From: an uncultured virus (IMG/VR IMGVR_UViG_3300030330_002209)
Lineage: Duplodnaviria; Heunggongvirae; Uroviricota; Caudoviricetes
Reading direction: 5' to 3' (one strand)
IMG/VR virus record: IMGVR_UViG_3300030330_002209
Coordinates: 1 to 64,000 of that record
Length of the DNA: 64,000 bases
Shown: positions 11,769 to 57,395 of the stretch, piece after piece
Layout of the letters: each line of letters starts with the position of its first letter
Position numbering within the stretch: the first letter of the stretch is position 1
Notes under the pieces: generated by a model
Database searches by the model: none
What the model was told of the DNA's origin: nothing
The model's input: the letters and a program-made list of their open reading frames with translations, nothing else
Translations under genes and position numbers: made by a program

Positions 11769-12992
11769 ATGGCATTTAAAATGAATAAGCCCTCCATGGT
11801 TCAGGGCACTAAACGCTACAGAGACGCTATTAAAGCTATCAAGCTTAATAGAGAGGCTAGTAGTAACAAAACAAAAGAAGGTAGAGCAGAGTCTTCTGCT
11901 TTTCAAATGGCTGAAAAATCTTCTATGAGGTCTTACGCTGAGGCTAAAAAAAGAGATCCTAAGTTAGATGAGCACATTAAAGCTCGTAACGCTGCGGAAA
12001 AAGGTAGTCCTGAGTATAATGCTGCTCAAAACAAAATCAACAAAGCATACGGTAAAGGTCCTACTGATAGAAAAACTACAAAAATGACATCGGAAACTGG
12101 TAAAGGTGGCAAAACTATTGAAACGACTACAGATGCTGCTAAACCCGGAGTAGTTAAAACAAATGTTAAAGACGAAGCTAGAGGTGTTGAGAAAAGAACT
12201 ATGACAAAAGATGATGGTTCTGAAAGAAAAGTAAAGATCAAAGGTAGAAACAGAAGAACAGAAAGAGCTGATGAGTCAAAAGGCCCTAGAGAAAAAGGTA
12301 CTAAGACAAAAATCACAGATCGCGACGCAGAAGGCAATGTTGTAAGAAAAGAAAAAATTAGAAAAGATAAAGAAGGTAAAGTTAAAGGCATAAAAGTTAA
12401 AACTAAAGACGCTGTTACTGGTAATGTTACTAAAACTAAAATAGATAGCGAAGGTAAAAAGACTTCTAAAACTAGAAAAGGTTTTAAAGGTAGCGAAGTT
12501 GGTAAGTTCTTAACAGCTAAAGCAGAAGCTAGAAAAGCTAGAAGAGCTGCTAAAAAAGAAGAAAAGTCTTCAATGACTAAGCCTGATAGAAGAACAATGG
12601 AAAAAATTGAAGATAGTTCAATGACTAAGCCTAAAAGTTCAACGAAAAGAACTCGAAATCCAAATGAAGATCCTACTGGCATAAAATCTTCTATGCCTAA
12701 GCCTAATAGTTCAATGCCAAAGCCTAAGTCTTCAATGACAGCCGCAGAGAAATCGTCTATGAGGGCAGCAACTAAATCTTCTATGATGGCAGCTGAAAAA
12801 ACTCCTATGACTTCTCCAGGTAAGACTAAAAAGAAAAAGAAAGCTAAGTCATCTATGAGAGCTGCTGAGAAGTCTTCGATGACTGCAGCAGAAAAATCTT
12901 CTATGGAATTTAACAAAGAATTAAAAGCAGCTGCTAAAGCTGGTAAATTAGATAAGAACCCTAAATTCAAAGCTGCTGTAATGCGTGGCTAA
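11769..12992 (+). CDS. Highly basic low-complexity protein with MAFKM leader and SSM repeats
   Basis: K/R-rich; 11 SSM motifs; first gene of the plus-strand arm. Confidence 0.85.
   Translation: MAFKMNKPSMVQGTKRYRDAIKAIKLNREASSNKTKEGRAESSAFQMAEKSSMRSYAEAKKRDPKLDEHIKARNAAEKGSPEYNAAQNKINKAYGKGPTDRKTTKMTSETGKGGKTIETTTDAAKPGVVKTNVKDEARGVEKRTMTKDDGSERKVKIKGRNRRTERADESKGPREKGTKTKITDRDAEGNVVRKEKIRKDKEGKVKGIKVKTKDAVTGNVTKTKIDSEGKKTSKTRKGFKGSEVGKFLTAKAEARKARRAAKKEEKSSMTKPDRRTMEKIEDSSMTKPKSSTKRTRNPNEDPTGIKSSMPKPNSSMPKPKSSMTAAEKSSMRAATKSSMMAAEKTPMTSPGKTKKKKKAKSSMRAAEKSSMTAAEKSSMEFNKELKAAAKAGKLDKNPKFKAAVMRG
12560..12910 (+). repeat. Degenerate intragenic tandem repeat encoding (AAEK)SSM-type 7-8 aa units
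   Basis: KSSMPKPNSSMPKPKSSMTAAEKSSMRAATKSSMM...KSSMRAAEKSSMTAAEKSSME. Confidence 0.8.
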
Positions 12993-13006
12993 AAAAAAAT
13001 AAAACT

Positions 13007-13750
13007 ATGGCATTTAAAATGAAAGGAAGTTCCATGCATAAAGGAACAAAAGCACACAAAGACGCGTTAAGCGCGTTCAAAGCGGCGGAAGAATCTAGCT
13101 TGAAGAGTACAGGAGTTTACGAAACATATTTTGAAGATGGAGAGGTGAAGAAAAGAAGAATACCTAAAGAGCAGTTTTTAGAACAATACCAAGCTCAAGT
13201 AGCAGCAGGTGAAAACCCAGCTATTAATGTAGGTGGGACAAACCTAAATCAAGAAGGTCGAGTAAATGAATACGTATTAACAGGTGGTGATATAAATCTT
13301 GCAAAGAAACTAGATCTAGAAAGGGCTGACATTCAAGCACCAGGCGGTTTAGTAAAAACAGATACAAAGCAAGAATATTATTATCCTGGAACTGGCTCTC
13401 CTGTAACTCCTACTACAGACATATCAGGAGCTGCTCAAAGAGATAAAGATAGAATGGATAGAACGACAGGACCTCTTGACTTTAACAGAAAAGAAGCTAT
13501 ATTAGAAGGCCAAGGTATTGACAGAGGTGAACTTTTAAATTTTATAGAAAATCTAGACCCAACAATGCGAGCTAGGTTGACTGGAAATAAACAAGGAAAT
13601 CTTGGTGATATAAAAAATATGTCTAAATTAGATAAATTAATCCAAACCTTTGTTAACCAAGGTGGAAAAGTAACTAAAGGTCAAGGTAAACGATCACAAT
13701 CTGCTATGTCTAGTCCTGTAGTAGGTAGAAACCAAGGGACAAGCAACTAA
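13007..13750 (+). CDS. Hypothetical protein with MAFKM leader
   Basis: MAFKMKGSSMHKGTK...SAFKAAEESSLKS parallels the leader of 11769. Confidence 0.85.
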   Translation: MAFKMKGSSMHKGTKAHKDALSAFKAAEESSLKSTGVYETYFEDGEVKKRRIPKEQFLEQYQAQVAAGENPAINVGGTNLNQEGRVNEYVLTGGDINLAKKLDLERADIQAPGGLVKTDTKQEYYYPGTGSPVTPTTDISGAAQRDKDRMDRTTGPLDFNRKEAILEGQGIDRGELLNFIENLDPTMRARLTGNKQGNLGDIKNMSKLDKLIQTFVNQGGKVTKGQGKRSQSAMSSPVVGRNQGTSN

Positions 13751-13781
13751 AAATTAATATTAACCATTAAATAAAACCAAA

Positions 13782-14081: not shown

Positions 14082-14108
14082 CCAAATAATTTAATTTAAT
14101 TTAATAAA

Positions 14109-16717: not shown

Positions 16718-17158
16718 ATGAGACTGACAGCTCACGATTTACGTGAATTAAAAATCCTTAAGTATTACAGGCTCGTTAGAAAATGGGCCTGTAAGACTTA
16801 CGGGTTAAAAGATGCTGATCTTGAACTACTAATTTATTTAGACTGCAAAGATCGGTTTACAAGACAAGAATTTATAGACGGTACATATACATACTCTTGG
16901 GACAAAGAGAGGTGGGAGCGTCTTAGAAAAGAAGGCTGGATAGAAGTTTGGCGACATAGAAATCGTACAACGATAAAGTATAGCGTATTTAAAACTTCGT
17001 TTAAGTGCAGCCAATTAATAAGTAGAATCTATAGAATCTTACTCGGAGAAGAAGATTTACCAGTATCAGATCGAAGTGTATTCTACAATAATGAAACATA
17101 TACTGACAAAGTCTACAACAAGGCTATTGACGATATGATAAAAGATCCAGATAGATAA
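16718..17158 (+). CDS. Putative winged-helix DNA-binding protein
   Basis: LKDADLELLIYLD...FTRQEF...WERLRKEGWIEVW resembles a MarR-like wHTH. Confidence 0.55.
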   Translation: MRLTAHDLRELKILKYYRLVRKWACKTYGLKDADLELLIYLDCKDRFTRQEFIDGTYTYSWDKERWERLRKEGWIEVWRHRNRTTIKYSVFKTSFKCSQLISRIYRILLGEEDLPVSDRSVFYNNETYTDKVYNKAIDDMIKDPDR

Positions 17159-17553
17159 TGGGTAAATTTAAACTAGGTAAACAAACAAGAAAGGTTAATA
17201 CACCAGACAACTCGCCTATAATTAGAAAAAATTTAGGTAGCGGTATATTAGCTGAAGCTAACAAAGACGGTTCTATATTTGTAGACAAGTCTGTTAAGCC
17301 TGGCAGCTCATTAGAGAAAAAAGTTATAGCACACGAAAAGAAACACCTTGACGAAATGAAAAACGGTCAGATAGGTTATACTAAAAAAACAACTTTTGAT
17401 AAAATAGCTGGTGTTAAGTTTAAAAGAGTTGACGGTGATCTTGTAGTAACAGAGTCAAGTAATCCAAAGTACCCAGTTGGTATGAGAGCCCCAGAAGGAT
17501 CTAACAAATGGGCACATGAACAAAGAGCAATTAAAGAAGAAAAAAAAGCATAG
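17158..17553 (+). CDS. Putative zincin metallopeptidase
   Basis: VIAHEKKHLDEM (HExxH) with a downstream WAHEQRA glutamate; N-terminal MGKFKL leader. Confidence 0.7.
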   Translation: MGKFKLGKQTRKVNTPDNSPIIRKNLGSGILAEANKDGSIFVDKSVKPGSSLEKKVIAHEKKHLDEMKNGQIGYTKKTTFDKIAGVKFKRVDGDLVVTESSNPKYPVGMRAPEGSNKWAHEQRAIKEEKKA

Positions 17554-17555
17554 TT

Positions 17556-17735
17556 ATGGCGTTTAAAATGAAAATGAAAGGTTTTCCAAAAGTAACAATT
17601 CCACAAAAGCCTAAAAGTATGATGGAGGCTAAAAAAAAGCCTTATAAAAAACCTGTAGAAGCTGGTTATGATGAGCCTGAAAAAATAGCTTATTCAAGAA
17701 GAGTTTTAAATCCTACAATAAAAAATCCTAGGTAA
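17556..17735 (+). CDS. Small basic protein with MAFKM leader (59 aa; not in the ORF track)
   Basis: Translated by hand: MAFKMKMKGFPKVTIPQKPKSMMEAKKK...NPR; TAATG overlap with the holin. Confidence 0.8.
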   Translation: MAFKMKMKGFPKVTIPQKPKSMMEAKKKPYKKPVEAGYDEPEKIAYSRRVLNPTIKNPR

Positions 17736-24775: not shown

Positions 24776-25969
24776 ATGCAAGAAAACGAAAACATTGAAG
24801 AGGTTCAAGAACAGCCTCAAGAAGAACAAACGCAAGAGCAAGAGTTAGATTTAAGTAAATTTGAAACTGCTGATGATCCTAGCGTTTACAAAGTAGATTT
24901 AAGTAAACCACCGCCAACAGCGGAAACAAATGAACAACCAGAAGAAACTACAGAAAGTACAGCTAACGACACAGGAGTGGTTGCAAGCGTTGAAAACACC
25001 GAGCCCGTACAAGAACAAGAAGAAGTACAGCCGGAAGTTGAAGCACAAGAACAACCAGTCTTAGAAGAAGTAACTGAAGAAGAAGTAGAGCAGGTAGAAG
25101 AAATTGTAGAAGAAGCTATAGTTGAAGCTCAGGCTACTGGAGAGCCTTTACCTGAGAATATTCAAAGCTTGGTTAATTTTGTAAACGAAACTGGTGGTAG
25201 CGTAGAAGACTATGTAAAGCTAAATAGAAATTATGCAGAAATGGATAATCAAGAAGCTTTACAAGAATACTATAGATCTACTAAACCTCATCTAACACCT
25301 GAAGAAAGAGCTTTTTTAATGGAAGAGCAGTTTTCTTATGATGAAGAAATAGATGATGAAAAGAACATTAGAAAAAAGAAAATAGCCTTAAAAGAGCAAG
25401 TTGCAGAGGCTAAAGCCTACTTAGACGGGCAAAAGTCTAAATATTACGAAGAAATTAAAGCTGGAAGCAAGCTCACTGAAGAGCAGCAGAAAGCAATTGA
25501 TTTTTTCAACAGATATAACAAAGAATCAGAAGAGACTCAAGCGGCGCTTGAAAAGAACAAGACGATTTTTAACAACAAGACTAATCAAGTCTTTAACAAA
25601 AATTTCAAAGGTTTTGATTTTAAAGTTGGAGATAAAACTTATAGGTATAATGTTAATAACGTCGATGAGGTAAAGCAAACCCAAAGTGACATAAACAACT
25701 TTGTTGGAAAGTTTCTAAACGAAGATAGTTCTATGGGTGATGCTAAATCATACCACAAGTCTTTATACGCGGCAATGAACCCTGACGCTTTAGCTAGACA
25801 TTTCTATGAGCAAGGTAAAGCAGATGCTATGAAAAATAGTGTTGCTAATGCTAAGAATATAGACATGACGCCAAGACAAGAACAAGGCGCTAATTATAGT
25901 GATGGTCCAAAGTTTAAGGTTGTTCAAGATGATTCTGTTTTTGATTTTAAGTTTAAAAAACGAAAATAA
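24776..25969 (+). CDS. Putative capsid scaffolding protein
   Basis: Very acidic disordered N-terminus, helical C-terminus; lies between portal and capsid genes. Confidence 0.65.
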   Translation: MQENENIEEVQEQPQEEQTQEQELDLSKFETADDPSVYKVDLSKPPPTAETNEQPEETTESTANDTGVVASVENTEPVQEQEEVQPEVEAQEQPVLEEVTEEEVEQVEEIVEEAIVEAQATGEPLPENIQSLVNFVNETGGSVEDYVKLNRNYAEMDNQEALQEYYRSTKPHLTPEERAFLMEEQFSYDEEIDDEKNIRKKKIALKEQVAEAKAYLDGQKSKYYEEIKAGSKLTEEQQKAIDFFNRYNKESEETQAALEKNKTIFNNKTNQVFNKNFKGFDFKVGDKTYRYNVNNVDEVKQTQSDINNFVGKFLNEDSSMGDAKSYHKSLYAAMNPDALARHFYEQGKADAMKNSVANAKNIDMTPRQEQGANYSDGPKFKVVQDDSVFDFKFKKRK

Positions 25970-38585: not shown

Positions 38586-38586
38586 T

Positions 38587-39195
38587 ATGTCATTTGTAGC
38601 AGTAGCAGTAGTTGCCGGTGTAGCTGGTCTTGCCAAAGTTGGTGTAGGTATGGCTGGCGCGGCAAAAGCTAAAAAAGAACAAGCAGCAGCTGAGCAAAAA
38701 CAAAAAGCTCAAATGATGCAATATGAAAATCTAGATAGATCTAATCCATATCTAAACATGGAAAACGTATACGAAGATCTAACAGTTAATCAAAAAGAAG
38801 CAGAGTTTACTAAACAACAACAAGAACAGCAGAGGGCTAATATTATGGGGCAAATGTCTCAAGCTGCTGGTGGCTCTGGTATTGCGGCATTAGCTCAAGC
38901 AATGGCTAATCAAGGATCGCTTGATGCTCAAAAAGCTTCTATTAGCATTGGTCAACAAGAAAAGGCTAATCAAATGAAAAAGCTTGCTGAAGACTCTAGA
39001 CTACAAGGCCTAGAAAGAGAGGGTGAGTTATACAGAAGAGAGCAGGAAGAAGAGTTAGTTACAACTCAGCTAGGTATGGCGCAAGCAGATGTAGCCGCGG
39101 CCGCTCAACAAAGACAACAAAATAGACAAATGATAGCTTCTGGTATTGGTGATATAGGTGGAGCTGCAATGAAACTAGGCGGAGTAGGCGCTTAA
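38587..39195 (+). CDS. Putative DNA ejection/pilot protein
   Basis: Hydrophobic G/A-rich N-terminus and Q/A-rich coiled coil; start reassigned to 38587. Confidence 0.65.
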   Translation: MSFVAVAVVAGVAGLAKVGVGMAGAAKAKKEQAAAEQKQKAQMMQYENLDRSNPYLNMENVYEDLTVNQKEAEFTKQQQEQQRANIMGQMSQAAGGSGIAALAQAMANQGSLDAQKASISIGQQEKANQMKKLAEDSRLQGLEREGELYRREQEEELVTTQLGMAQADVAAAAQQRQQNRQMIASGIGDIGGAAMKLGGVGA

Positions 39196-40554: not shown

Positions 40555-43500
40555 ATGAATGAAGAACTAGCGTTGCTTATCGAGGACATGAAGTCTGACG
40601 GTAGGTCTGTAGAAGAAATTACAGCTTTTATAGAAAAATATGAAGCTGAAAAAGAAGCTGAAAAACAAAAAAATCTTCTTCCTAAAGCAGATGTACTTGA
40701 CCAACCTTTTGGTGGAAAAAAGACACAAGACTCTCAGAAACAGGGTGCGCCTGTAGAGTCTCAAACTGCAGCACCCGAAAGTACGGAGTCCAAATCGGAA
40801 GATACTTCATCGGAATCGTTAGACGATAGTCAATCATATACAAGCCCTATAGGTCTTCCTGAAGATGTTAACGTAGAAGTAAAAACTCAAGCAAACGTTA
40901 TTGTTGGTGGTCAACAAACAACCACTAAAGACTTGCAAAGCTACTATGACACGTATAGGCAAGAAGGCGAAACTAACGCCGATTTAATGGAGCGTATAAC
41001 GCCTAAAGAAATACCTGCCGCAGTGTTTAATCCTCAGTTACTTGAAGATCCAGCTGTTAGCCAGTCTTACATGGGCAGTGATGTTAAAAAGTTTGGAAAT
41101 TTACCTCATATAGAGATTGACGGAGTAATATACAACCCTAATATTTTTCTTGGCCAAGGCGCTTATACGCTTACAGATGGATCTCCAGCTAGTGAAGAAG
41201 ATATACAAAAACACAAAGAGCTTAGTTTACTTTATACTTATCAAGAACAAAATTCTGCTGATGCCGTTAGAGGTCAAGTAATTAAAGACGTTGGTTTAGA
41301 AAAGGCCGCTGAAATGTCTGACATACAGGTGAAAGACGTGTTAAAAAAGCCTTCTGATCTTGACTACATTACAAGCCAAGGGCAAGATGATCTTGAAGCC
41401 GCTGAGAACGAGTTTGACTACAAAGATTATCAAAATTTAAAAATTGAAAAAACAACAAACGATTTTAGTGTATATATAGCTAAAGAAGCATCTAAGCTTG
41501 AAGCTCAAATGCAAGCAGAGTTTGAAAGAAAAGTTGCTAACTTAAACACGCAGGAAGAAGCAGATGCGCTAGCAAAACAAATGCAAGAAGACTATGCTTT
41601 AAAGTTTCAACAATTGCAAGACGAGCAATGGAAAGTTTGGTCTGAATCTTATAAGCCTGAGTACAGTTTATGGAACGGTAAGTTAGAAGAAATCAACGCG
41701 ATGTTAGATGACGCTGGCTTTTACGAGTTAGATAGAGATCAAAAAAGAGTAGCTTTATCTAATATTTTAGAACAGCAAATGAGAACCATGCAAGAAGATG
41801 GTAAAGTTGTACCTAACGAAGAAGACATGCGTAATGAGTTTTATTCGTACTTTTTTGATAATCTTTATACAGACGAAAAAGGTCAGTACACTCAATTTGC
41901 TATGAAAGATATGGCAACAACTATTGGTGATGAAGCTGAAAAAAAGTTACAAGCATATTACAAAGAGCTTAAAGAAAAAGGAACACTTGATGGAAAAGAC
42001 TCAGCTTTAATGCGAATGCCAGACGGCCGACCTGTACCAATATTCTATACTGATGGCGAGCTAGAAAGATATGTTAGGCAAATATATCCAGAGTTAGCCT
42101 TAGCTGTAGAATACAGAGATGACATATTAGACAATCCAGAGACGTTAGGCGAGAGTGGGTTTATAAATTTTTTTAGAGGTTTAGGTGGAAGAAAAGGTTA
42201 CACTTATGTGCCTTTTGGTGGCTCTGTAATTGACATGGGAAATTCTTTTAATGCTTTAATATTAGCTAATAAAGAAGATAGAACTCAAGAAGAAGAAAAC
42301 GCTTTAGTGTTGTATCAGTTAAATCAAATGTCTCAGCAAAAGTCTAATGAACTTTCAACATCTTACAAAGCTGGTAACATGGCTGCTCAATCACTTCCTT
42401 TTATGCTTGAGTTTATAGCAACAGCAGGTTATTTTACTGCAGCTAAAGAGGGTATGGAAAAAGTTATTAAAGAAGTTTCAAATAAATATATTAAAAAACA
42501 AATAAAAAAGAATATTGCAAAAGGAACTCTTGGATCTTCAAAAGTTTTATTTGATAGTACTAAGTTTAAAGTATCTAAAGGTGTTCAAAAAACTGTTGCT
42601 GTTACCGTAGGAGCCTTAACTCAAACAGCTGTAAATCCTAGTAGATACTTAGATCAAACTTTTCAGAATATGACTCCTGAAATGGTTTTTGCTTATTCAG
42701 ATGAAGCCGATGGGTTAATTAATACTATTACAAAGCAAGGTGATAGCTTTCCAAAAGCTTTTGCTAAAGGTTTTGCAACAACCTCTTTAGAAAATTTAAC
42801 AGAGCGAATGGGGTTTTTAGCACCAAGTCTTGTTGGGAAACTTATTACTAAAGCTGGTGCAGACGATTTTTTAAAACGTATATCTTTAGGTAGATATATG
42901 AGAAAACTTAACTTAAATAAAAGCGAAGCTTTTCTTGATGTTATTAAAAAAAGAGCAGGTTGGAACGGTATATTGGGTGAAATATCTGAAGAGATGTATA
43001 ACATACCTTTGTCTAATCTTGTTAATGGTCAAGGTTTTGGTTTTGCAGGTTTTACTATGGACGATTTTAAGGCAATGGCTTTAAGTATCGGTGCAACTGC
43101 TGGTGGATTTTACGGGGCGGGTGTTGGTATAAACGCTATTCGTGGTAGAAAATCACCTACATATATTGTAGACTATCAAAGATTTCAAACAAAACAAGAG
43201 GCACTATCAAGACTGCAGCAGTTACAGCTTGAAGGAAAATTAGACGCTAATACAGATATAGAAATAAAAAATGATTTTGTAGCATTTGATGAAGTTTCAT
43301 CTTTTTTAGAAGAAAATGGATTAAGCAATAAGATTATTAAAACAGATGGGTTAGGTGTTTCAAGTGGACTTATTGCTACAAGTGAGGTTGAAGCGATGGA
43401 GCAAATAGAAAGTAAAGAGTTAAGAAAACAATTAGAAGAAATTAGCGAAGAAATAGGTATTCAAGAGCAAAAGAAAACAGAAATACTTAATAGCAAAACG

Positions 43501-46500
43501 CTAAACGATCAAAATAAAAAAAATCAAATAGCAGCGATAGAGCAAATTGATGCTTACTTAGCTGAATTAGTAAATGCTAAAGAAACAATACTAGCTCCAG
43601 TAAGAGATGCTATAACAGAGTACAAAAAAGAAGAAAGGTATAAAATACAACTAGCTAACGCTAAGAGAGCGCAAGAGCAACTTAACAAGGTAGCGCCTAT
43701 AAAAACTAGGTTTGTAGAAACTAATGACGAAGAAGAGGCGGCTCAGATGATGAGAGAAGAAGTTTTGCTTGCTAGTGGCTTAATTGAAATTAGAGACGGT
43801 GTTTACGTTGACATGAACACTGGTGATGAAGTCGTGTTAACACCACAGCAAGAAGCTGAAATTCAAAGAGAAGTTGATAAAGGAAGAACTAGTCATGGAT
43901 ATGCTAGCAACTTTACTAACGAGGCTACTGGAGAGAGACTGCTTATAATAAACAAACAAGAGGCGTTAAAACAAAAAGGTATGAACGTCGCGGCTCATGA
44001 GTTTTTTCACGAGTTTTTACGTAAGTCGCTTAGAGATAACCCTGCTATGGCTGTTGTTATAGGTCGCGCTTTACGTGATGAGCTATTACTAATAGATCCT
44101 AGGCAAGTTAGAGATACTAATTTTAGAAATAGATTAGTAGCTTATCAAGATCAATCTGCAGAAGTTAGAGCAGAAGAAGTATTAGCGTTATTTTCAGACG
44201 CTCTAGCTAATGGCACTGTGCAGTATAAAGAAACGTTCTTTACTAAGCTAGGTGATATGATTAGAAGAATCATGCTTCACTTTGGCGTGCCAGTTAAATT
44301 TAAGACTGGTAGAGATGTATTTAACTTTATAAGAGATTATAACAAAGCTATTGAGTCTAAAAGAGGTTTAAGTCGAGGTCTTATTACAACAGCTTTAGAA
44401 GGCGCTAAATTAGAGGGCGCTTTAAAAGCTGAAGTAGACATGATCAACGACATGTTAGATGATTTTAATAAAAATTACGAAACATATCTTAGAGAAGCAG
44501 ATCCAAAAGATCTTGATGAAAATCAACTTCAAGCTCTTGAAAGAGTACAGCAAGGAGAAAAAGTACTTAACATTGATAACCTACAGCAAATGGGAGCAGT
44601 TCGTTATTCAAGAGAAGGCATACCAGCTGATAAACTTACTAAAGAAGAGTTGGCAAAAGCTGTTAACGATATGATGGCTCCGCTAGTTAATCTTAAAAAG
44701 AAAAGAAACGACGGAACTATTACAGAACAAGAAGAGCGTATGCTAGAGCGTATGGAGGCTGATATACCTGGTAGAGCTGCTTTCTTCTACATGGGTATGG
44801 CTCAAGATGCTTTTACAAGCGCTCTAAACAATGCGCCAACAGAAGATATTAGAAGAGACTTAATAGATAATAAAGATGATATTATAGCTTTATTACTTTA
44901 CGATCCTGGAACTGAAGGTGCTAAAGGTAGAACTGTTGTAGCGTTATTAAAAGATTTTGACCCAGCAAAACATAAATACGAAAACGCCGCTGCTTACGTT
45001 AATCAATTTTTCAAAAAAAGATCTTTAGAAATATTTGCTAGAAGAGGTGTTGAAGATGTGGCTGCTAAGTCTATAGAGCAAGACGAAGCTACAAAAAAGA
45101 AAGTTGAAGGTATGACAGGGCCTAACTCTGATCAAGTAGAGGCAAAAACAAAAGGTAGGGTTTTAGGAGCTGATCTTGGCTTACATGAGTACGACGAAAA
45201 CGGCAATAGAATTGATGCTCTAAGAAAAGAAGCTGACAGGCAATTAGACATACTGCTAGAGCAAGAATCACCCTCTTTCGCAGATTCACCATCTTTTACG
45301 GCTCCGTTCATATCTGAGTTGTCAGGCGTTCCAGCTAAAAAAATAACAGATAAAGCAGCTAACTTAAATCAACACTTAGGGCCTGCTAGAAGGTTTAATG
45401 CTAAGCATAAAGATATGCTTATAGCTATGAGGCCTAGGCATTACACTGTTAAGATGGTTGAGGTTTCAAAAGATGTTTTTGAGGCTAGACCTGATAGAGC
45501 TATCGGTATACCTAATAAAATTAAAAACTTAGGATACAATAAAGGAACAAGAAAAGCTAACTTAACACCTTGGCATATAAAATCTATAAGTAGCTCAGAG
45601 TTTGATAATTTCATAGCGCCAAGAAATCCTGACGGAACAGTAAATGAAAGCGATAGGAATATTTCTCAAAACAATAAAGCTTGGTTAAATCTACTTGACA
45701 AAGTAATGAGTAATCAAGAGCTACGTATGGCAGCTATAGACAGAGGTTTACCAATGGAGTGGATAGGTAGGATGCGTGATGGTAACTCTAATTATTTGTT
45801 TTCAAAAGAAGTAAGAGCTTTAGGTATTGACAATGAAGCTGTGTTTTACGGTAGGCTTAGCGAGTTTGGCTCTGAACCAATGACAGCTGATGTTAAGTCT
45901 ATACAAGAAGCTTTAATGCGCGTGTATCCAGATATAATGACTAGAGGTACCGCTGGTAAAATAGCTAAAGAATTATCTAAGTTTATAAAACAATACCAAA
46001 ACATAGAAAAAAGCTTTATTGGCTTAGGTAAAATACCACCTAGAAGCTTTGAAGAGTTTTTAGCTGATAATGTTAACCTACCAGAGTTTAATATAACTAG
46101 GCTTCTTGAAGTAAAACAAGACGGTAAGTTCATGAAAAACTCAGAGCTATATGATAATATAGACTTTGTTAGAAATCAAAGAGCATCTGTAGTTGACATG
46201 GGTAACTACATGATACAAGATCTTAAAATGAAACCTGAAGAGGTTATTAGATATATGTTGGCTTATTTAAAACCTATGTATGCTGGCGCTAGTAAAATAG
46301 GTAGAGGAGCTATTGGTGTTAGAGAAGACGGAACTTTATATTATAAAGAAGGTTTTGAAGGTGGCACGCCTAGAGGTATGGTGTTTGAAAGCGTTAGAGA
46401 TTTTATTGAAAACGGTGTAAATAAAATAGACGGTATAAACATTGATCTTTCTAAAGTTACTGATGCAGGAGGAAGTATACAGAATAAAAAAATGATAGAA

Positions 46501-49500
46501 GTATACGGTGCTGACGTAACAGCTTTACCACAAAGCGCTAAAGGCATGATGAACAAGCATAATAAGCTTGGTAAAGAAAAGTTTTTTGAAGCTGTAGATA
46601 AAGAGACAAAAGAAGTAAGACAGCTTATAGACGTAATGATGAGATACTTTGTTGGCCGAGTTAAAGACGGCAGCTTAGGTAGAAACGACCTAGCTATGAT
46701 GATGTTGTCTTTGAACGCTGGGTTAGACACGCCTATGAGAAGAGCTGCTAACTTAGCATATATAGGAAGAGATGTTGAGAACATGGACCCTAGCAAAATG
46801 ACCTCTAGCACCGTAGCTTACGAGCACATGATACCTGCAAACTATATGGCTGTTAAACTGCTTGATCAGTATATGAACAAAGGCGGTGTAGAGGACTTAG
46901 ATGCTTTTTACAAGAATTACAACGTAGCTATTATATCAGCTAAGATGGACGATGTTTTAAAGAAACAAGGTCTACTTTCTATGATGCCTGTAGGCTATGA
47001 TATAAACACACCGGCCTGGGTTAGATATTATAATTTTAGAACTCAAGGTTTTAAAGATATAGTAGGATTAACTGCTTTAGACCTAAGAGCACAAGATGTT
47101 GAGGTTGCTGATGCTTTTACTAAAGCAAACGAGATATTAATTGACAATCCTAACGAACTACAAGTTAAGAAAAACTACGATAAAGCTATAATAAACGCTA
47201 GACTACACTCTAAAGAAACACCTTCAAGAGGCATGTCTACGTTTGACTTTGACGAAACACTAATTGACAAAGGAGAAAACTTTATTATAGCTAGAAAAGA
47301 CGGACAAGAAGTTAAGATTAGTTCTGGTCAATGGCCTATACAAGGGCCTCAATATGCGGCTGACGGTTGGACTTTTGATTTTACAGATTTTGTAAATGTA
47401 AGAGGTGGTATTGAAGGACCGCTATTACAAAAAATGAGAAATCAAATTAAAAAGTATGGACCAGAGAACGTATATGTTTTAACAGCTAGACCTGCTGAGT
47501 CTGCTACAGCTATACACGGTTGGCTAAAAACTAAAGGCATAAACATACCTTTAAAAAATATTACTGGCCTAGGCAATAGTACTGGCGATGCTAAAGCTGC
47601 TTGGTTTTTAGAAAAGTATGCAGAAGGCTATAATGATATGTACTTTGTTGACGACGCTTTACCAAACGTAGAGGCTGTTAAACACGTGTTTGATCAACTA
47701 GATATTAAAGGTAAGTCTGTTATTGTAAGACCTAGATATAGCCTTGACCCAGAGTCAAAGCTTAATGAAATGTTAGAGCGTAGCAAGGGCGTTGATAGAA
47801 ACCAAACTTTCAATAGAGTTCAAGCAAGAAATAAAGGTAAAGGAAATAGAATAAGACAATTATTTATACCACCTAGCGCAGATGACTTTGAAGGTTTAAT
47901 GTACTATAACTATGGTAAAGGAGAGCAAGGTAATGCTGATGCTCAATTTTTCAAAGAAATGTTTTTTGATCCGTATAATAGAGCGGATAGAGAGCTTGAC
48001 ATGTATAAGCAGACGTTAAGAGAAGATGTTATGGCTATTAAAAAGCAATTTCCAAAAGTTGCTAAAAAGCTTAACAAAGACTTTGCTAAAACTGGCTATA
48101 CTAACGAGCAGGCTATGCGTATATACATATACAACAAATACGGATATGAAGTTCCTGGCATGTCTTTTGAAGAGGTTACTGCTATAGCAGAAGCTGTAGC
48201 AGCAGACTCTGAAATGGCTGCGTTTGCTGATCTAATGGACAAAGCAATGAAGATGGACTTTTACGTTCAACCAAGATTAGGTTGGAACGCCAGCTCTTTC
48301 AATGGTGATATGGCTGATGCTGCTAGAGCAAAAAGAGAAATATTCTTACAAGAGTGGGTAGAAAATATAGACGCTACTTTTACTCCTGAAATGCTTAACA
48401 AGCTAGAAGCTATACATGGCTCTGGCTATAGAAGTGCTCTTGAAGACTCGATAGCTCGTATGAAGTCTGGAACTAATAGACCTACAATTAAGAATAAACA
48501 AGTTAATAATTTCTTAGACTGGCTAAACGGTTCTGTTGGTGCTATTATGTTCTTTAATGCTAGATCTGCTGTACTACAGACTTTATCTACAGTTAACTTT
48601 ATTAACTTTGAAGACAACAATGTGTTTGCAGCTGCTAGAGCGTTTGGTAACCAAAAACAATATTGGGCAGACTTTGTGTTTTTGTTTAACTCTCCTATGC
48701 TTAAACAACGACGCGGCGGTATACAGTCTGACCTAAATGCTTCAGAGCTTGCTAGACTAGCAGAGAAAGGTGGTGTTAGGGCTGTTATAGGTAGATTACT
48801 TCAGTTTGGTTTTACTCCTACGCAGATAGCGGATAGCTTTGCTATTGCGGCCGGTGGTTCTACATACTATAGAAACAGAGTTAATAAGTATGTTAAAGAA
48901 GGTATGAGTCAAACAGAGGCTGAAACAAGAGCGTTTGAAGACTTTCAAGAAATAGCAGAAGCTACTCAGCAGTCTAGTAGGCCAGATAAAATATCTCAAG
49001 AGCAAGCTTCGGTATTAGGTCGTTTGATACTAGCGTTTCAAAATACGCCAATGCAGTATAACAGGCTTATAAAGAAAGCAGCGCTAGACTTAATTAACGG
49101 TAGAGGTGATTGGAGAAGTAATGTGTCGAGAATAATTTACTATGGAGCTGCTCAAAATATTATATTCTCAGCCCTTCAAAACGCTTTGTTTGCTGTAATG
49201 TTTGATGATGACGATCAAGATGATGAGTTTTTAGATACTAAAGTACAAAGAATAGGTAATAGTACATTAGACTCACTTCTTAGAGGTTCCGGTATATATG
49301 GCGCTATATTATCTACAGCTAAAAATACCATCATGCGATTTATGTATGAAAGAGAAAAAGGCAAACGAGCGGATCATGGTAGAACTTTAGTTGAAGCTTT
49401 AAATGTATCTCCACCTCTTGGTTCAAAAGCTAGAAAAATGTATTCAGCTATGACTACAGATAAGTGGGATAAAGATATTTACGATAAAATACCTTTGTAC

Positions 49501-50022
49501 AATATTGATAATCCTATATGGGCTGCTGCTGGTAACGTTGTAGAAGCTTTAACAAATATTCCAGCTGGACGTATACAAAGAAAAATATCTAATTTAAAAG
49601 CAGCTTTAGATAATGAGACTGCTACGTGGCAAAGATTAGCTTTATTTTTAGGTTGGGACAAGTGGAGTTTAGGACTTGAAGAGCCAGAAGAAATAAAGCA
49701 AGCTGAAGAAGAAGCTAAAGAAGATAAAAAGAAAAAGAAAAAAGAAGATAAAAAGATAGAAGATAAACAAAAAGAGCAAGAGTTTTTACAAGATCAAAAA
49801 AGAGAAAAAGAAGAAGGAGAAAAGCCTAGATGTGCTGCTGTCACTAGAAGCGGAACAAGATGTAAAGGAACTCCTGTAGACGGAACCTACTGTACTATAC
49901 ATACAAAAACAGAAAAAAGGAGTGATGGTAAAGAAGTACAATGTAAAAAAATAAAATCTAACGGTGATCGCTGTAAGATGAAAACAACAAATAAATCTGG
50001 ATTATGTTATTATCACGACTAA
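40555..50022 (+). CDS. Giant multi-domain internal virion protein (3155 aa)
   Basis: HExxH (AAHEFFHE), YEHMIPA, HAD motifs (FDFDETL / LTARP / YFVDD), two C-terminal C-x9-C...C-x2-H repeats. Confidence 0.8.
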   Translation: MNEELALLIEDMKSDGRSVEEITAFIEKYEAEKEAEKQKNLLPKADVLDQPFGGKKTQDSQKQGAPVESQTAAPESTESKSEDTSSESLDDSQSYTSPIGLPEDVNVEVKTQANVIVGGQQTTTKDLQSYYDTYRQEGETNADLMERITPKEIPAAVFNPQLLEDPAVSQSYMGSDVKKFGNLPHIEIDGVIYNPNIFLGQGAYTLTDGSPASEEDIQKHKELSLLYTYQEQNSADAVRGQVIKDVGLEKAAEMSDIQVKDVLKKPSDLDYITSQGQDDLEAAENEFDYKDYQNLKIEKTTNDFSVYIAKEASKLEAQMQAEFERKVANLNTQEEADALAKQMQEDYALKFQQLQDEQWKVWSESYKPEYSLWNGKLEEINAMLDDAGFYELDRDQKRVALSNILEQQMRTMQEDGKVVPNEEDMRNEFYSYFFDNLYTDEKGQYTQFAMKDMATTIGDEAEKKLQAYYKELKEKGTLDGKDSALMRMPDGRPVPIFYTDGELERYVRQIYPELALAVEYRDDILDNPETLGESGFINFFRGLGGRKGYTYVPFGGSVIDMGNSFNALILANKEDRTQEEENALVLYQLNQMSQQKSNELSTSYKAGNMAAQSLPFMLEFIATAGYFTAAKEGMEKVIKEVSNKYIKKQIKKNIAKGTLGSSKVLFDSTKFKVSKGVQKTVAVTVGALTQTAVNPSRYLDQTFQNMTPEMVFAYSDEADGLINTITKQGDSFPKAFAKGFATTSLENLTERMGFLAPSLVGKLITKAGADDFLKRISLGRYMRKLNLNKSEAFLDVIKKRAGWNGILGEISEEMYNIPLSNLVNGQGFGFAGFTMDDFKAMALSIGATAGGFYGAGVGINAIRGRKSPTYIVDYQRFQTKQEALSRLQQLQLEGKLDANTDIEIKNDFVAFDEVSSFLEENGLSNKIIKTDGLGVSSGLIATSEVEAMEQIESKELRKQLEEISEEIGIQEQKKTEILNSKTLNDQNKKNQIAAIEQIDAYLAELVNAKETILAPVRDAITEYKKEERYKIQLANAKRAQEQLNKVAPIKTRFVETNDEEEAAQMMREEVLLASGLIEIRDGVYVDMNTGDEVVLTPQQEAEIQREVDKGRTSHGYASNFTNEATGERLLIINKQEALKQKGMNVAAHEFFHEFLRKSLRDNPAMAVVIGRALRDELLLIDPRQVRDTNFRNRLVAYQDQSAEVRAEEVLALFSDALANGTVQYKETFFTKLGDMIRRIMLHFGVPVKFKTGRDVFNFIRDYNKAIESKRGLSRGLITTALEGAKLEGALKAEVDMINDMLDDFNKNYETYLREADPKDLDENQLQALERVQQGEKVLNIDNLQQMGAVRYSREGIPADKLTKEELAKAVNDMMAPLVNLKKKRNDGTITEQEERMLERMEADIPGRAAFFYMGMAQDAFTSALNNAPTEDIRRDLIDNKDDIIALLLYDPGTEGAKGRTVVALLKDFDPAKHKYENAAAYVNQFFKKRSLEIFARRGVEDVAAKSIEQDEATKKKVEGMTGPNSDQVEAKTKGRVLGADLGLHEYDENGNRIDALRKEADRQLDILLEQESPSFADSPSFTAPFISELSGVPAKKITDKAANLNQHLGPARRFNAKHKDMLIAMRPRHYTVKMVEVSKDVFEARPDRAIGIPNKIKNLGYNKGTRKANLTPWHIKSISSSEFDNFIAPRNPDGTVNESDRNISQNNKAWLNLLDKVMSNQELRMAAIDRGLPMEWIGRMRDGNSNYLFSKEVRALGIDNEAVFYGRLSEFGSEPMTADVKSIQEALMRVYPDIMTRGTAGKIAKELSKFIKQYQNIEKSFIGLGKIPPRSFEEFLADNVNLPEFNITRLLEVKQDGKFMKNSELYDNIDFVRNQRASVVDMGNYMIQDLKMKPEEVIRYMLAYLKPMYAGASKIGRGAIGVREDGTLYYKEGFEGGTPRGMVFESVRDFIENGVNKIDGINIDLSKVTDAGGSIQNKKMIEVYGADVTALPQSAKGMMNKHNKLGKEKFFEAVDKETKEVRQLIDVMMRYFVGRVKDGSLGRNDLAMMMLSLNAGLDTPMRRAANLAYIGRDVENMDPSKMTSSTVAYEHMIPANYMAVKLLDQYMNKGGVEDLDAFYKNYNVAIISAKMDDVLKKQGLLSMMPVGYDINTPAWVRYYNFRTQGFKDIVGLTALDLRAQDVEVADAFTKANEILIDNPNELQVKKNYDKAIINARLHSKETPSRGMSTFDFDETLIDKGENFIIARKDGQEVKISSGQWPIQGPQYAADGWTFDFTDFVNVRGGIEGPLLQKMRNQIKKYGPENVYVLTARPAESATAIHGWLKTKGINIPLKNITGLGNSTGDAKAAWFLEKYAEGYNDMYFVDDALPNVEAVKHVFDQLDIKGKSVIVRPRYSLDPESKLNEMLERSKGVDRNQTFNRVQARNKGKGNRIRQLFIPPSADDFEGLMYYNYGKGEQGNADAQFFKEMFFDPYNRADRELDMYKQTLREDVMAIKKQFPKVAKKLNKDFAKTGYTNEQAMRIYIYNKYGYEVPGMSFEEVTAIAEAVAADSEMAAFADLMDKAMKMDFYVQPRLGWNASSFNGDMADAARAKREIFLQEWVENIDATFTPEMLNKLEAIHGSGYRSALEDSIARMKSGTNRPTIKNKQVNNFLDWLNGSVGAIMFFNARSAVLQTLSTVNFINFEDNNVFAAARAFGNQKQYWADFVFLFNSPMLKQRRGGIQSDLNASELARLAEKGGVRAVIGRLLQFGFTPTQIADSFAIAAGGSTYYRNRVNKYVKEGMSQTEAETRAFEDFQEIAEATQQSSRPDKISQEQASVLGRLILAFQNTPMQYNRLIKKAALDLINGRGDWRSNVSRIIYYGAAQNIIFSALQNALFAVMFDDDDQDDEFLDTKVQRIGNSTLDSLLRGSGIYGAILSTAKNTIMRFMYEREKGKRADHGRTLVEALNVSPPLGSKARKMYSAMTTDKWDKDIYDKIPLYNIDNPIWAAAGNVVEALTNIPAGRIQRKISNLKAALDNETATWQRLALFLGWDKWSLGLEEPEEIKQAEEEAKEDKKKKKKEDKKIEDKQKEQEFLQDQKREKEEGEKPRCAAVTRSGTRCKGTPVDGTYCTIHTKTEKRSDGKEVQCKKIKSNGDRCKMKTTNKSGLCYYHD

Positions 50023-51038: not shown

Positions 51039-51041
51039 GGT

Positions 51042-54402: not shown

Positions 54403-54869
54403 TGCAGTTAGAAGTATTAAGATTTAGTTCTCAAGCTGACTCTACATCTGGTTTGTTATTTGAGTTAACAGACTTAGGTAGAAAGTTCATGTGTTACACG
54501 CTTGAAGACGAGCGTAGAGCTTTAAAAGTAAAAGGTGAAACACGTGTACCTGCTGGTACTTATAAAATTGAATTAAGAACTGAAGGTGGTTTTCATGGTA
54601 GATACACTAAGAAATATCCTGGTATACACCGTGGTATGCTTCATATCACTGATGTTCCTAACTTTGAGTATATTCTTATTCATACCGGAAACACCGATGA
54701 GCACACGGCAGGGTGCCTTATTGTCGGTGACGCGCAAGAAAACAATTTACTTTTACCCGATGGTTTTGTTGGTAAGAGTGTTAATGCTTATAAGAGAATA
54801 TATCCGTCTATTGCGAAAGCAATTGCAGACGGAGAAGAAGTAACAATAACATATAAAGACTACGACTAA
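54402..54869 (+). CDS. DUF5675-family protein (L,D-transpeptidase-like His/Cys motif; endolysin candidate)
   Basis: CYTLED, ETRVPAGTY, ILIHTGNTDEHTAGCLIVG. Confidence 0.75.
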   Translation: MQLEVLRFSSQADSTSGLLFELTDLGRKFMCYTLEDERRALKVKGETRVPAGTYKIELRTEGGFHGRYTKKYPGIHRGMLHITDVPNFEYILIHTGNTDEHTAGCLIVGDAQENNLLLPDGFVGKSVNAYKRIYPSIAKAIADGEEVTITYKDYD

Positions 54870-55090
54870 TGGCGTACAAGATGAAATATAAAGGGTACAT
54901 TGGCAAAGGAAAATCACCAATGAGAATTTTAGGGATGAGTAGAGAAGAGCAGCTAGATAAGCAGCATGAAGATAAAATTAAAAAAGATAAACAAGTTCTA
55001 GAAGAACAAAAATTAACAACTGATATAGCTGAACTAGATAAAAGATTTAGAGATGCTATGGTAGTTAATCCTGCTTCTAGAAATAGGTAA
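54869..55090 (+). CDS. Small protein with MAYKM leader
   Basis: MAYKMKYKG...KSPMR. Confidence 0.75.
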   Translation: MAYKMKYKGYIGKGKSPMRILGMSREEQLDKQHEDKIKKDKQVLEEQKLTTDIAELDKRFRDAMVVNPASRNR

Positions 55091-55468
55091 ATGGCTTACA
55101 TACAAAAAAATAATCCATTTCCAGTTACGCCTTGCGGTAGACGTAGAGCTGGTGGTATTGGTAAAGGCTTTAACAGTAGCTTTACTAAGAAGCCTGATGT
55201 ACGTAGAACAATAGGTCCTGGTAAAAACTTTAATAAAGCAAAATCAACTGGCACCGGTGGTGCTGCTGGTGGCGGTATGACACAGAAAGGTGTTGATGAG
55301 TATAAAAGAAAAAACCCAGGTAGCAAACTACAAACAGCTGTTACAACTAAACCATCTAAACTAAAACCAGGTAGCAAAGCTGCTAAGCGTAGAAAAGCTT
55401 TTTGCGCTAGATCTAAAAAATGGAAAAGTAAAAGAGGTTTAGCTGCTAGACGCAGGTGGAACTGTTAA
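55091..55468 (+). CDS. Basic protein, DUF6321-like C-terminal domain
   Basis: GGMTQKGVDEY...NPGSKL...RRKAFCARS...RRRWNC, preceded by SSFTK. Confidence 0.7.
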   Translation: MAYIQKNNPFPVTPCGRRRAGGIGKGFNSSFTKKPDVRRTIGPGKNFNKAKSTGTGGAAGGGMTQKGVDEYKRKNPGSKLQTAVTTKPSKLKPGSKAAKRRKAFCARSKKWKSKRGLAARRRWNC

Positions 55469-55479
55469 AATATATAGAC

Positions 55480-55899
55480 ATGGCTTTTAAAATGAAAAAC
55501 AAAGAACTTAAAAAAATTATTGGCGAACTTAAAAACGCTAGTAAACTACACGCTGGCCAAGCTGAAAAACTAGAAGATATGTCTAGCTCAAGCGGGTCTC
55601 CGTTAAAAAAAATATCTGCTGCTTGTAAAGCTGCTGCAAAACGTAAGTTTAAAGTTTGGCCATCTGCTTACGCTTCTGGTTGGGGTGTTAGATGTACTAA
55701 AGCTGGTGGGCCTGGTAAAATGGGTAAAGGTAAAAAGAAGTCATCATTAAAAGTAGGACCTAGAGGACAAGGAGGTATTTATAATCCTAGAACTCAACTA
55801 GATCTATACAAAAAAGGAATTACTGTAGCGGGAACTAAACCTACTGCAAAAGAAACTTCTACTACAACAGAAACTACAGAAGTCAAAAAAGATGCTTAG
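55480..55899 (+). CDS. Basic protein with MAFKM leader
   Basis: Start reassigned to ATG 55480; SPLKK, then ACKAAAKRKFKVWPSAYASGW, then SSLK. Confidence 0.8.
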   Translation: MAFKMKNKELKKIIGELKNASKLHAGQAEKLEDMSSSSGSPLKKISAACKAAAKRKFKVWPSAYASGWGVRCTKAGGPGKMGKGKKKSSLKVGPRGQGGIYNPRTQLDLYKKGITVAGTKPTAKETSTTTETTEVKKDA

Positions 55900-56161
55900 C
55901 CCTATACAGAAAAAGAAAACAGCTAAGTCTATTACATGGCATGATTCAGACGCGCCTGACGCAAAAGGTAAGTTTAAAAGTTTATCGCCATCAGCTCTCG
56001 CTAGTTGGTTAATTAAAACTAGAAAAGGTAACTTACAAAAAGTAATTAGTAGTTTAAATCAACAGTACGTTTTTAATAGACAAAAAAATCCTAGCTATGC
56101 TCGCAAGATGAGAGCAACCATGAACATAGTGAGGAGAAGATTAAAAAAGAAAGATGAGTAA
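55892..56161 (+). CDS. Basic hypothetical protein
   Basis: MLSPIQK...DSDAPDAKGKFK.LS...LASWLIKTRK. Confidence 0.75.
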   Translation: MLSPIQKKKTAKSITWHDSDAPDAKGKFKSLSPSALASWLIKTRKGNLQKVISSLNQQYVFNRQKNPSYARKMRATMNIVRRRLKKKDE

Positions 56162-57395
56162 AGCTTATAGAGGTGTATTAAAAGCTCGTATATCAAAGCT
56201 GTATGGTGGAGATGTAACTATAGCTAAAGCTAAAGCTTTAAAAAATAGAAAAGATGCTACACCTAGAGATAAGCAATTAGCAAATTGGTTTATTAACATG
56301 CAAACAAACAGGCCTTCATTTAAAAAGTTTAGCTTAAAAGGTTTTGACTACAACATGAAGTCACCGCCTAAAGATCACTCGCCTGAAACTTTAGCTGAAA
56401 TAAAAGAGCTAACTAAAATACCTGACAACGATAAGTTTGTTAAATCAAAAGATAAAGTTAGAGATTCTTTCAAAGAATTATTTGATAAAGAAGGTATTGA
56501 ATATCCTAAACAGCTTGTAGATGATATGATAGACGAAGCAGATCCTATCATCATGAAGTTTAAAAACAAGTTTAAAAGACCAAGACCTAAAAAAATTGCT
56601 GATAAAAAAGGTATCAAGATAAATTACCTTGAACTTAAAACAATGAAAACACCTTCATATCCTTCTGGCCATAGTACAAGTTCTAAACTTATAGCCGAGG
56701 TGTTAGGTAAAAAATATCCCAAGCTTAAATCTAAGCTTAACAAAGTAGCAGAAGATATATCTTATAGTAGAAATGTAGCTAAAGCGCACTACAAATCAGA
56801 TAGTGAAGAAGGTAAAAAACTAGGTAAAGCTATGAGCGATTACGCATCGTCGTTTACAAAACGAAAAGATCCTGTGGTTGGTACAGGTAAAAAGCCAAAA
56901 GGCTCTGATAGACGTTTATACACAGACGAAAATCCCAAAGACACTGTATCTATTAAGTTTGCAACTGTTGCTGATGCTAGAGCTACTATAGCTAAAGTAA
57001 TGAAGATAAACAAACCTTACGCTCGTAAGATACAAATACTAACAGTATTAGAACAACGAGCTGAAGTTATGGGTAAAATGCAACAAGCTAGACTTGCTAA
57101 AGCTGCTAAGAAAAAATTAAAAGCTCAAAAAGAAAAATCACCTATGACAAAACAAAAAGGCGGTGGTACTAAAAAGGTTTGTTTACCAGCTGCTAAAGTT
57201 CGTAGTATGTCTTCTTCAGAGCGAGCTAGTGTTGTAAGAGCTAAAAGAAAAGCCGCTGCTGGCGGTAAGTATAAAAGATCTAGTAAGTCAAACGTCAAAG
57301 GCGCTAGGAAAAAAGGAGCTACACTAAGAGACTGGTTTGAAAAAGAAAACTGGGTACAAGTTGGTAACCCAAGTAAAAAGTGTGGAGAAAAATAA
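56154..57395 (+). CDS. Multi-module basic protein containing a PAP2/haloperoxidase-like phosphatase domain
   Basis: K-x6-RP (KNKFKRPRP), PSYPSGH, SR-x5-H-x3-D (SRNVAKAHYKSD); other modules separated by PSFKK, SSFTK and SPMTK. Confidence 0.8.
   Translation: MSKAYRGVLKARISKLYGGDVTIAKAKALKNRKDATPRDKQLANWFINMQTNRPSFKKFSLKGFDYNMKSPPKDHSPETLAEIKELTKIPDNDKFVKSKDKVRDSFKELFDKEGIEYPKQLVDDMIDEADPIIMKFKNKFKRPRPKKIADKKGIKINYLELKTMKTPSYPSGHSTSSKLIAEVLGKKYPKLKSKLNKVAEDISYSRNVAKAHYKSDSEEGKKLGKAMSDYASSFTKRKDPVVGTGKKPKGSDRRLYTDENPKDTVSIKFATVADARATIAKVMKINKPYARKIQILTVLEQRAEVMGKMQQARLAKAAKKKLKAQKEKSPMTKQKGGGTKKVCLPAAKVRSMSSSERASVVRAKRKAAAGGKYKRSSKSNVKGARKKGATLRDWFEKENWVQVGNPSKKCGEK

Follow-up and report, generated by a model that had tools for sequence, protein, structure and literature searches.

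Late genes of an uncultured tailed phage, IMG/VR record IMGVR_UViG_3300030330_002209, are predicted to encode a system that loads accessory proteins into the phage head and cuts them at a short motif. The window analyzed here is the first 64,000 nt of this record, nearly the whole of its 67,243 nt, and we refer to its genes by the position of their first nucleotide. The putative system comprises a leader at the start of unrelated late accessory proteins (consensus M-[AG]-[FY]-K-[ML]-K), a motif that recurs at the joints between protein modules, and a zincin-type metallopeptidase encoded at 17158. On balance we lean toward the reading that the leader brings accessory proteins, and the zincin with them, into the head during assembly and that 17158 cuts at the motif; the narrower claim, that the zincin cuts at the motif at all, we regard as likely. 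A first-pass annotation of the sequence had proposed a modular address tag with protease sites, by analogy to phage T4. A protein-level leader on unrelated late proteins, motifs at joints and links to virion proteins support that proposal in part, and what changes is the enzyme, here a predicted minigluzincin.

Between 11769 and 57395 the genes lie on the plus strand, among them those for GroEL/GroES, terminase and virion proteins. The genes that carry the leader or the motif, or that bear on them, are as follows.

11769..12992, + strand: 407-aa basic protein; leader MAFKMNK; SAF/SSM at residues 43/51
13007..13750, + strand: 247-aa protein; leader MAFKMKG; SSM/SAF/SSL within the first 33 residues and SAM near the C terminus
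17158..17553, + strand: 131-aa minigluzincin-like metallopeptidase, candidate processing enzyme; variant leader MGKFKL
17556..17735, + strand: 59-aa basic protein; leader MAFKMKM, with no S-[PAS]-hydrophobic motif
24776..25969, + strand: scaffold-like acidic protein between the portal and capsid genes; leader-like C terminus DFKFKKRK
25997..27505, + strand: major capsid protein (MCP), 502 aa, HK97 fold; no leader, motif not enriched; candidate leader receptor
38554..39195, + strand: first ejection-type protein, homolog of phi40:1 gp099; the window copy lacks the motif
40555..50022, + strand: giant 3155-aa ejection-type protein of a family related to phi40:1 gp101
54869..55090, + strand: 73-aa protein; leader MAYKMKY; KSPMR at residue 16 (nt 54914)
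55091..55468, + strand: 125-aa basic DUF6321 protein; leader variant MAYIQKN; NSSFTKK at residue 29 (nt 55175), before a conserved module
55480..55899, + strand: 139-aa basic protein of two or three modules; leader MAFKMKN; SPLKK at residue 40 (nt 55597) and SSLKV at residue 88, both at module joints
55892..56161, + strand: 89-aa basic module starting MLSPIQKK; homologs carry the leader plus SPF/SPN
56154..57395, + strand: 413-aa fusion of four modules, namely an N-module, a PAP2 phosphatase-like domain and two basic modules; joints at PSF (nt 56313), SSF (nt 56847) and SPM (nt 57138)

All seven N termini that the first-pass annotation had grouped as one leader and its variants were found where it had placed them. 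Exact MAFKM starts occur four times among the 84 open reading frames (ORFs) of the window against 0.0005 expected, as calculated from position-specific start frequencies in 823 ORFs of zincin-negative relatives. A DNA pattern for MAFKM[KN] matched about 1300 stored IMG/VR stretches; 106 of the 127 distinct matches that were read are ORF starts, mostly of unrelated small proteins, and a few are chance matches in unrelated phages. The 134 leader proteins left after dereplication at 70%, a set partly recruited by this same DNA pattern, have a median length of 117 aa, and 60% are clearly basic. Codon use in whole genomes shows all four Ala codons and Gly at position 2, Phe or Tyr at position 3, and Met (53) or Leu (16, with four codons) at position 5. 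TTT (56/61) and AAA (65/68) exceed their backgrounds of 81% and 74%, so that a nucleotide preference contributes but leaves the leader pattern unexplained. Excluding the zincins, the leader begins 56 of 1158 late-strand ORFs in 28 zincin-positive genomes, compared with 0 of 434 late-strand ORFs in 11 zincin-negative genomes and 0 of 1257 early-strand ORFs. Judged by its codons and its distribution, the leader is a protein-level, group-wide feature. Genes 11769 and 13007 have a related longer head (50% over 32 residues) and are therefore not independent instances; the leader DNA of 13007 is common to many other contigs, with sequences diverging at 13026. No description of this leader was found in the literature searched, which did not extend to supplements and most subscription papers.

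The first-pass annotation had given the motif as S-[SPA]-[MLF] and had counted SSM 11 times in 11769, and that count is correct. In this protein a 216-aa basic middle (net +32) is followed by ten further SSM in a tail of 7-8-residue repeats; the protein has no Pfam or PHROG match and no homolog among the relatives. Composition-preserving shuffles gave 0.72 expected matches to S[SPA][MLF] in 11769, where 12 are present, and 0.29 in 13007, where there are 4. The nine proteins named by the first-pass annotation hold 25 matches against 2.8 expected (13 against 2.1 without 11769), and the remaining 33 late proteins hold 30 against 20.5. A motif no commoner than K/S/M-rich sequence predicts had been named as grounds for abandoning the idea, and the shuffles showed an excess instead; K/S/M richness thus does not explain the motif in the named proteins. 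Its form needed revision: the motif is present, but NSPIIRK, MLSPIQK and PSFKK fall outside the pattern for which they were quoted, and the data-driven version is [ST]-[PAS]-x-K, mostly S-P-[LAFM]-K. Nor does a motif always follow a leader, as 17556 has a leader without a motif and 55892 and 56154 have motifs without a leader. The pattern matches at residues 34 and 53 of 55892 sit inside a conserved domain and are probably noise.

The position of the motif is more telling. It had been claimed to separate modules inside 56154, and free-standing homologs confirm this for all three motifs, which coincide at residues 54, 232 and 329 with homolog ends. PAP2 homologs align to residues 56-230, two of them starting M-F at the F of P-S-F, and other homologs span residues 236-329 and 329-413. 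The motifs of 55480 likewise lie at the ends of free-standing homologs. Internal fusion modules retain the motif, usually without the leader, which suggests two separate jobs. When bare homologs were aligned to motif-bearing joints, they started 0 to +7 residues after the motif Ser in 78 of 107 joints. In core proteins (400; capsid, portal and others) the motif is not enriched (13 against 15.2 expected), with single exceptions such as the scaffold of one relative, G007. The PAP2 domain of 56154 has apparently intact catalytic motifs (KxxxxxxRP, PSGH, SRxxxxxHxxxD) and occurs free-standing in at least seven relatives.

Listed as cargo by the first-pass annotation, 17158 is instead predicted to be a phage minigluzincin (H59-E60-H63/E121) and is our candidate for the motif-cutting protease. 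HEKKH occupies residues 59-63 (nt 17332-17346) in the first of two helices in the structure model (residues 51-68 and 119-130), and the third ligand, E121 (nt 17518-17520), lies in the second; H59, E60, H63 and E121 are invariant in 37 sequences. The model has a predicted local distance difference test score of 90 and is confident apart from a disordered leader; strand 1 (I21-K24) follows immediately on S19-P20. Structural comparison ranked IrrE/PprI, a mycobacterial regulator, ArdC, abylysin, SPRTN and selecase highest, and selecase variants are the only PDB sequence matches of the 17158 profile (E=0.0012). Its family matches no Pfam family at threshold and forms phage-specific clusters without annotation. 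The catalytic motif is that of the minigluzincins and their relatives, namely selecase (4QHF), abylysin (4JIU), IrrE/PprI (3DTE, 8SLN) and SPRTN (6MDX), whose core fold it may also have and from which 17158 differs in its low identity (8-20%) and in a beta-hairpin insert between the helices. Searches by tblastn of cultured phages gave no match for 17158, 38587-39195 or 43555-50022, and a canonical zincin searched against cultured phages found only weak matches, in unrelated phages. The leader stands at the start of 37 of 38 nonredundant zincin copies in the loci examined, a figure biased by recruitment, and many zincins carry the leader without a motif after it.

A zincin profile search returned 802 representatives. 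Among the best 150, 38 exceed 700 aa, and all of these best match the 40555 family; their zincin is fused near the C terminus with HExxH intact, unlike the free-standing zincin of the window. The strict motif occurs at 19 of 48 N-terminal joints (background 0.8%) and 13 of 54 C-terminal joints (2.6%) of zincin fusions, and a looser motif, chosen afterwards, at 45 of 52 and 33 of 56, with both sides carrying it in 9 of 11. A protease flanked by the motif is the arrangement that self-excision would need. Near residue 1148 the 40555 protein contains a further zincin-like motif, HEFFH, and its C terminus has Cys/His repeats (DUF5763-like); an assignment as RNA polymerase was dropped, as the protein has no DFDxD motif.

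The links to the virion run through homologs of motif-bearing families and do not concern the nine window proteins directly. Phage phi40:1 gp099, gp101 and gp080 were identified in virions by tandem mass spectrometry and are homologous to such families (E values of 6e-6, 2e-14 and 2e-18), and gp099-gp101 are syntenic with the ejection genes of the window. The 38554 family matches gp099, the giant 40555 family matches gp101, and a basic family from the 11769 locus matches gp080, with the motif upstream in 3 of 15 members. In zincin-positive genomes, 9 of 26 homologs of 38554 have a [ST]-P-x-[KN] extension just before their hydrophobic N terminus; read by eye, 0 of 11 identifiable counterparts in zincin-negative genomes have it.

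We compared 39 relatives, 28 zincin-positive and 11 zincin-negative. Cargo leaders are present in 18 of the 28 positives and in 0 of the 11 negatives. In small accessory late proteins, SP[FLMA][KRQ] occurs 57 times against 4.3 expected in the 12 positives recruited via the capsid gene alone, and once against 1.8 expected in the 11 negatives, where small basic ORFs are equally numerous. Once defined on the first genome set, the motif was checked out of sample on ten genomes fetched later: the six new negatives have 0 leaders and one motif in all, and the four new positives have 3, 3, 1 and 11 motifs. The same modules begin bare in negatives (MSKKDACY, MPKDACY, MADKSKMKCN). In the genomes covered there is no tag without the enzyme, and the tag thus appears to depend on the zincin in one direction. 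Since the motif is not enriched in core proteins and protease-free relatives have the same head genes, this would be an accessory system. A search for gene families that track the tag, in which the zincin family was merged with fused modules, returned many lineage markers and no clear second dedicated component.

Several genomes stand outside these counts: G035 (no capsid-family match), the near-copies G039, G120 and G123, G008, G021-G031, G045, G046, G051-G056, G059, G080 and G101 together with short records, and G002, G003, G014, G017 and G019, in which the zincin locus is not covered. Among the fragments without a zincin, G014 has 5 leaders, G017 has 2 and G003 has neither leader nor zincin. 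Coverage was 50 of 60.85 kb for MW202828, 40 kb for G015, G016, G019 and G020, and 60 kb for G048 and G050. A distant zincin-negative clade (G044, G057, G073 and G097) has [MYFA]xxGG motifs (YAEGG, YEEGG, MKKGG), located on ejection proteins and also ahead of the same basic modules, with 10 present against 3.8 expected (e.g., G073 30456-31610; G044 7225-11420). This is possibly a parallel code with another protease.

Scaffold-like proteins may offer a model for the leader. The pattern phi-K-phi-K lies in the last 20 residues of 41 of 45 scaffolds and in the first 40 residues of 16 of 45, and its rate in scaffold middles is 0.025 per 20 residues. The scaffold-like proteins of Elemovirus and phi40:1 (gp092) start MFKMK and MAFFKK, and leader-like scaffold ends occur also in zincin-negative phages. 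The label scaffold for 24776 comes from its position and composition. It is common for scaffold tails to bind inside the capsid, and the leader may therefore be a copy of such a signal. The candidate receptor, 25997, has the predicted fold of an HK97 capsid protein, with crAss001 capsid chains among its best matches (E about 1e-12).

The analogy to T4 drawn by the first-pass annotation stands in part. In T4, as parts of PMC9026906 describe, a capsid-targeting sequence is carried by IPI/IPII/IPIII and Alt, and the prohead protease is gp21. Here too a short common N-terminal peptide is found on unrelated, often basic, nonessential proteins, a parallel drawn from sequence analysis; its removal by a protease is proposed here and shown in T4. 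The leader itself has no sequence likeness to the T4 signal. T4 gp21 is a serine protease that cuts after L/I-X-E and also matures the capsid and core, whereas the candidate here is a gluzincin of about 105-130 aa, the motif is not enriched in core head proteins, and it also marks the joints of multimodule fusions. Membership in the T4 class fails because the motif and enzyme class differ and core head proteins are spared. A T4-type prohead protease was the enzyme of the analogy; searches with 41 late proteins (Pfam, PHROGs) and 33 early ones (Pfam) gave no prohead-protease match.

It is already known that giant virion proteins can contain zincins. Sections of PMC5512222 describe zincin-like metallopeptidase domains, in 12 clades, in phage polyvalent proteins, the N4 virion RNA polymerase and P1 DdrB, and propose autoprocessing. 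The phi14:2 protein gp65 has a zincin-like domain, and the preprint on this phage (bioRxiv 10.1101/2020.03.07.982082) leaves activation by proteolysis undetermined. The 38 homologs described above likewise have a zincin with HExxH and a C-terminal-helix Glu fused into giant virion-delivered proteins. The available text on these systems gives no recognition motif, whereas here a candidate site flanks the domain and recurs in separate proteins by the dozen, and most copies of the enzyme stand alone. A term search of the main text of the crAss001 structure paper (PMC10172136) found no mention of a protease or cleavage. What sets the present case apart is a widespread leader and site code tied to a predicted minigluzincin.

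The reading we favor proposes that the leader recruits unrelated accessory late proteins and the zincin to the prohead. We incline, with some reserve, to the view that the leader binds the site of the similar phi-K-phi-K scaffold ends, probably the inner capsid surface. The zincin, carrying the leader or riding on the giant protein, would itself enter the head, strip leaders and split fusions such as 56154. It would cut most simply before the hydrophobic residue (S-P|L), or alternatively after S-P-x-K. A cut before the hydrophobic residue would reduce the tail of 11769 to peptides of 7-24 residues around its 216-aa basic core, and in some relatives the hydrophobic N terminus of the first ejection protein would be freed. 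The peptides produced, basic and either DNA-associated or host-directed, would be delivered with the DNA, as would ejection proteins and enzymes, the PAP2 domain among them. As the capsid protein and portal are not predicted substrates, this would be an optional cargo layer and not core head maturation. A bolder proposal, tentative and in our judgment somewhat short of probable, is a plug-in cargo system that an abundant marine phage lineage evolved independently of T4, in which a six-residue copy of the capsid-binding scaffold end loads any protein and a self-excising 100-residue gluzincin reads S-P-x-K, releasing peptides, enzymes and ejection proteins.

A number of observations weigh against this account. 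Packaging, cleavage and protease activity are predictions from sequence. Ten of the 28 positives have no cargo leader, the modules of G020/G138 are bare although a zincin is present, and zincin-free G042/G123 encode a 38-40-aa peptide with SSM. The zincin-negative genomes fall in three lineages (three changes on a quick MCP tree), which leaves two or three independent lineage contrasts, and genome counts therefore overstate independence; many positives were, moreover, recruited by the leader pattern. Among free-standing database representatives, roughly 33 of 66 zincins have no leader. The original motif pattern is weakly enriched across the group (126 against 86 expected), the offset test is noisy (311 bins without a motif) and the cut position is not fixed, and S/T-P at N-terminal joints may partly be a structural element of the zincin domain. 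Structural scores for 17158 are middling: the 13 best rows are all zincin domains (Z 5.1-6.5, root mean square deviation 2.8-4.5, 61-86 residues aligned), and Foldseek found no PDB match at E<=0.001. Finally, phi40:1 packages the basic gp080 without a leader, and tag-free relatives retain the same basic modules, so that packaging in the wider group does not require the leader.

That last point also fits an explanation with processing but no address, in which the leader serves the zincin for docking or self-inhibition, akin to the leader of a ribosomally synthesized and post-translationally modified peptide; cutting would occur in the cytoplasm or after ejection, and cargo would enter by DNA binding or not at all. 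The leader does align with the motif (M-A-F-K-M with S-A-F-Q-M and S-P-L-K-K) and never occurs without a zincin in the genomes covered, and parts of PMC5512222 discuss phage zincins that act before packaging or after injection. We nevertheless consider this explanation unlikely, because internal modules keep the motif and usually lose the leader, as expected of separable jobs, because the leader resembles scaffold ends that zincin-negative phages have too, and because many zincins have a leader with no motif after it. It is more doubtful still that leader and motif are both noncleaved binding motifs for a head protein, multivalent in 11769, with the zincin as a further cargo enzyme. In its favor, repeats of 7-8 residues in tandem would be suited to avidity, several residues occur at motif position x (L, A, F, M, N, T), and cleavage at the motif is itself a prediction. 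Against it, motifs at joints are single and precisely placed, lie on either side of the zincin in 9 of 11 double fusions, precede the hydrophobic N terminus of an ejection protein, and vanish with zincin loss although the head genes stay.

The phage encodes GroEL/GroES, the proteins concerned are basic, 56154 has a PAP2 domain and S-P-x-K resembles known motifs, all of which would suit a GroEL client tag, a DNA-binding turn of the SPKK type known from the histone literature, or a phosphorylation site. These options seem very improbable to us: GroEL, which the first-pass annotation had named among possible partners of the leader, is present in five tag-free genomes, SP[KR][KR] is not enriched (8 against 5.2 expected), Pfam found no kinase among the 74 window proteins scanned, and ejection proteins that are acidic or neutral have the motif too. 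A nucleotide-level or historical effect, in which a gene-start cassette without protein function is copied by recombination, is largely refuted. It would fit the TTT and AAA excess and the many contigs in which common leader DNA is followed by divergence, but the third base of Ala is free, the M/L (ATG versus TTA/CTA/CTT), F/Y and A/G swaps keep chemistry and not bases, and internal motifs and the link to the zincin are left unexplained.

At issue are the loading of internal and ejection proteins by podophages and the targets of podophage zincins. The system offers a specific enzyme, a candidate cleavage site and naturally occurring negative controls, and a direct test would need one recombinant 12-kDa protein and peptides. 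If the proposal is true, head cargo would mature by a metalloprotease with a readable sequence code, virion cargo could be predicted from genomes, and the leader pattern in about 1300 IMG/VR stretches would mark many unknown proteins as cargo for delivery. The system could also give rise to a minimal tag for capsid loading and a small site-specific protease.

The window is from a Bacteroidota podophage related to Callevirus and Elemovirus; the tree built was an MCP tree of uncultured relatives. The Bacteroidota host is indicated by cultured relatives and by a type IX secretion system (T9SS) sorting domain at 51664. The capsid protein is 40% identical to that of Maribacter phage Panino, 38% to that of Elemovirus and 33.5% to that of the Cellulophaga phage phi40:1 (Pervagoviridae, Callevirus). 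With the last two the phage shares capsid proteins 33-38% identical, GroEL/GroES and the gene order portal-scaffold-capsid-tail-three ejection genes, and homologous capsid, portal-module and chaperonin genes stand in the Pervagoviridae/Elemovirus order. It differs from them in that phi40:1 and 40 kb of Elemovirus have no zincin or leader genes, and only their scaffold-like protein starts leader-like. The taxonomy of these relatives is treated in PMC8776804. Near-identical DNA is present in marine metagenomes, and 17062-17905 is matched without differences by contigs from two marine metagenome runs, which may be the samples of origin; no RNA holder is among the listed holders of matching DNA.

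A 3.7-kb tail of the record repeats its start at 91% identity (window 3-3734, record 63511-67243), and the unit genome is therefore about 63.5 kb; the imperfect repeat likely reflects two strains joined or a divergent circular overlap. N runs lie at 23770-23779 (portal gene) and 59403-59412 (ribonucleotide reductase gene), and relative to its homologs the portal ORF is missing about 50 aa, probably owing to the N gap. At 14109-15921, GroEL precedes GroES in a reversed order of a type described from virioplankton in the portion of PMC5649160 available, and a second GroES-like protein is encoded at 19467-20057. Seven copies of an element of about 30 bp with fixed spacing (family D2, 6487-11504) lie ahead of small minus-strand genes and are probably phage promoters; a sigma-70 region 4 protein is encoded at 2273-3025. 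The conserved block at 50004-53661 encodes a signal-peptide, aromatic-rich protein (50004), a protein that looks thioredoxin-like (51320) and, at 51664, an acidic protein with Cys repeats and a C-terminal T9SS sorting domain, which we read as phage-encoded host-surface proteins. Downstream of 56154, a histone H1-like Hc1 protein (E=3e-19) is encoded on the minus strand at 57418-57609.

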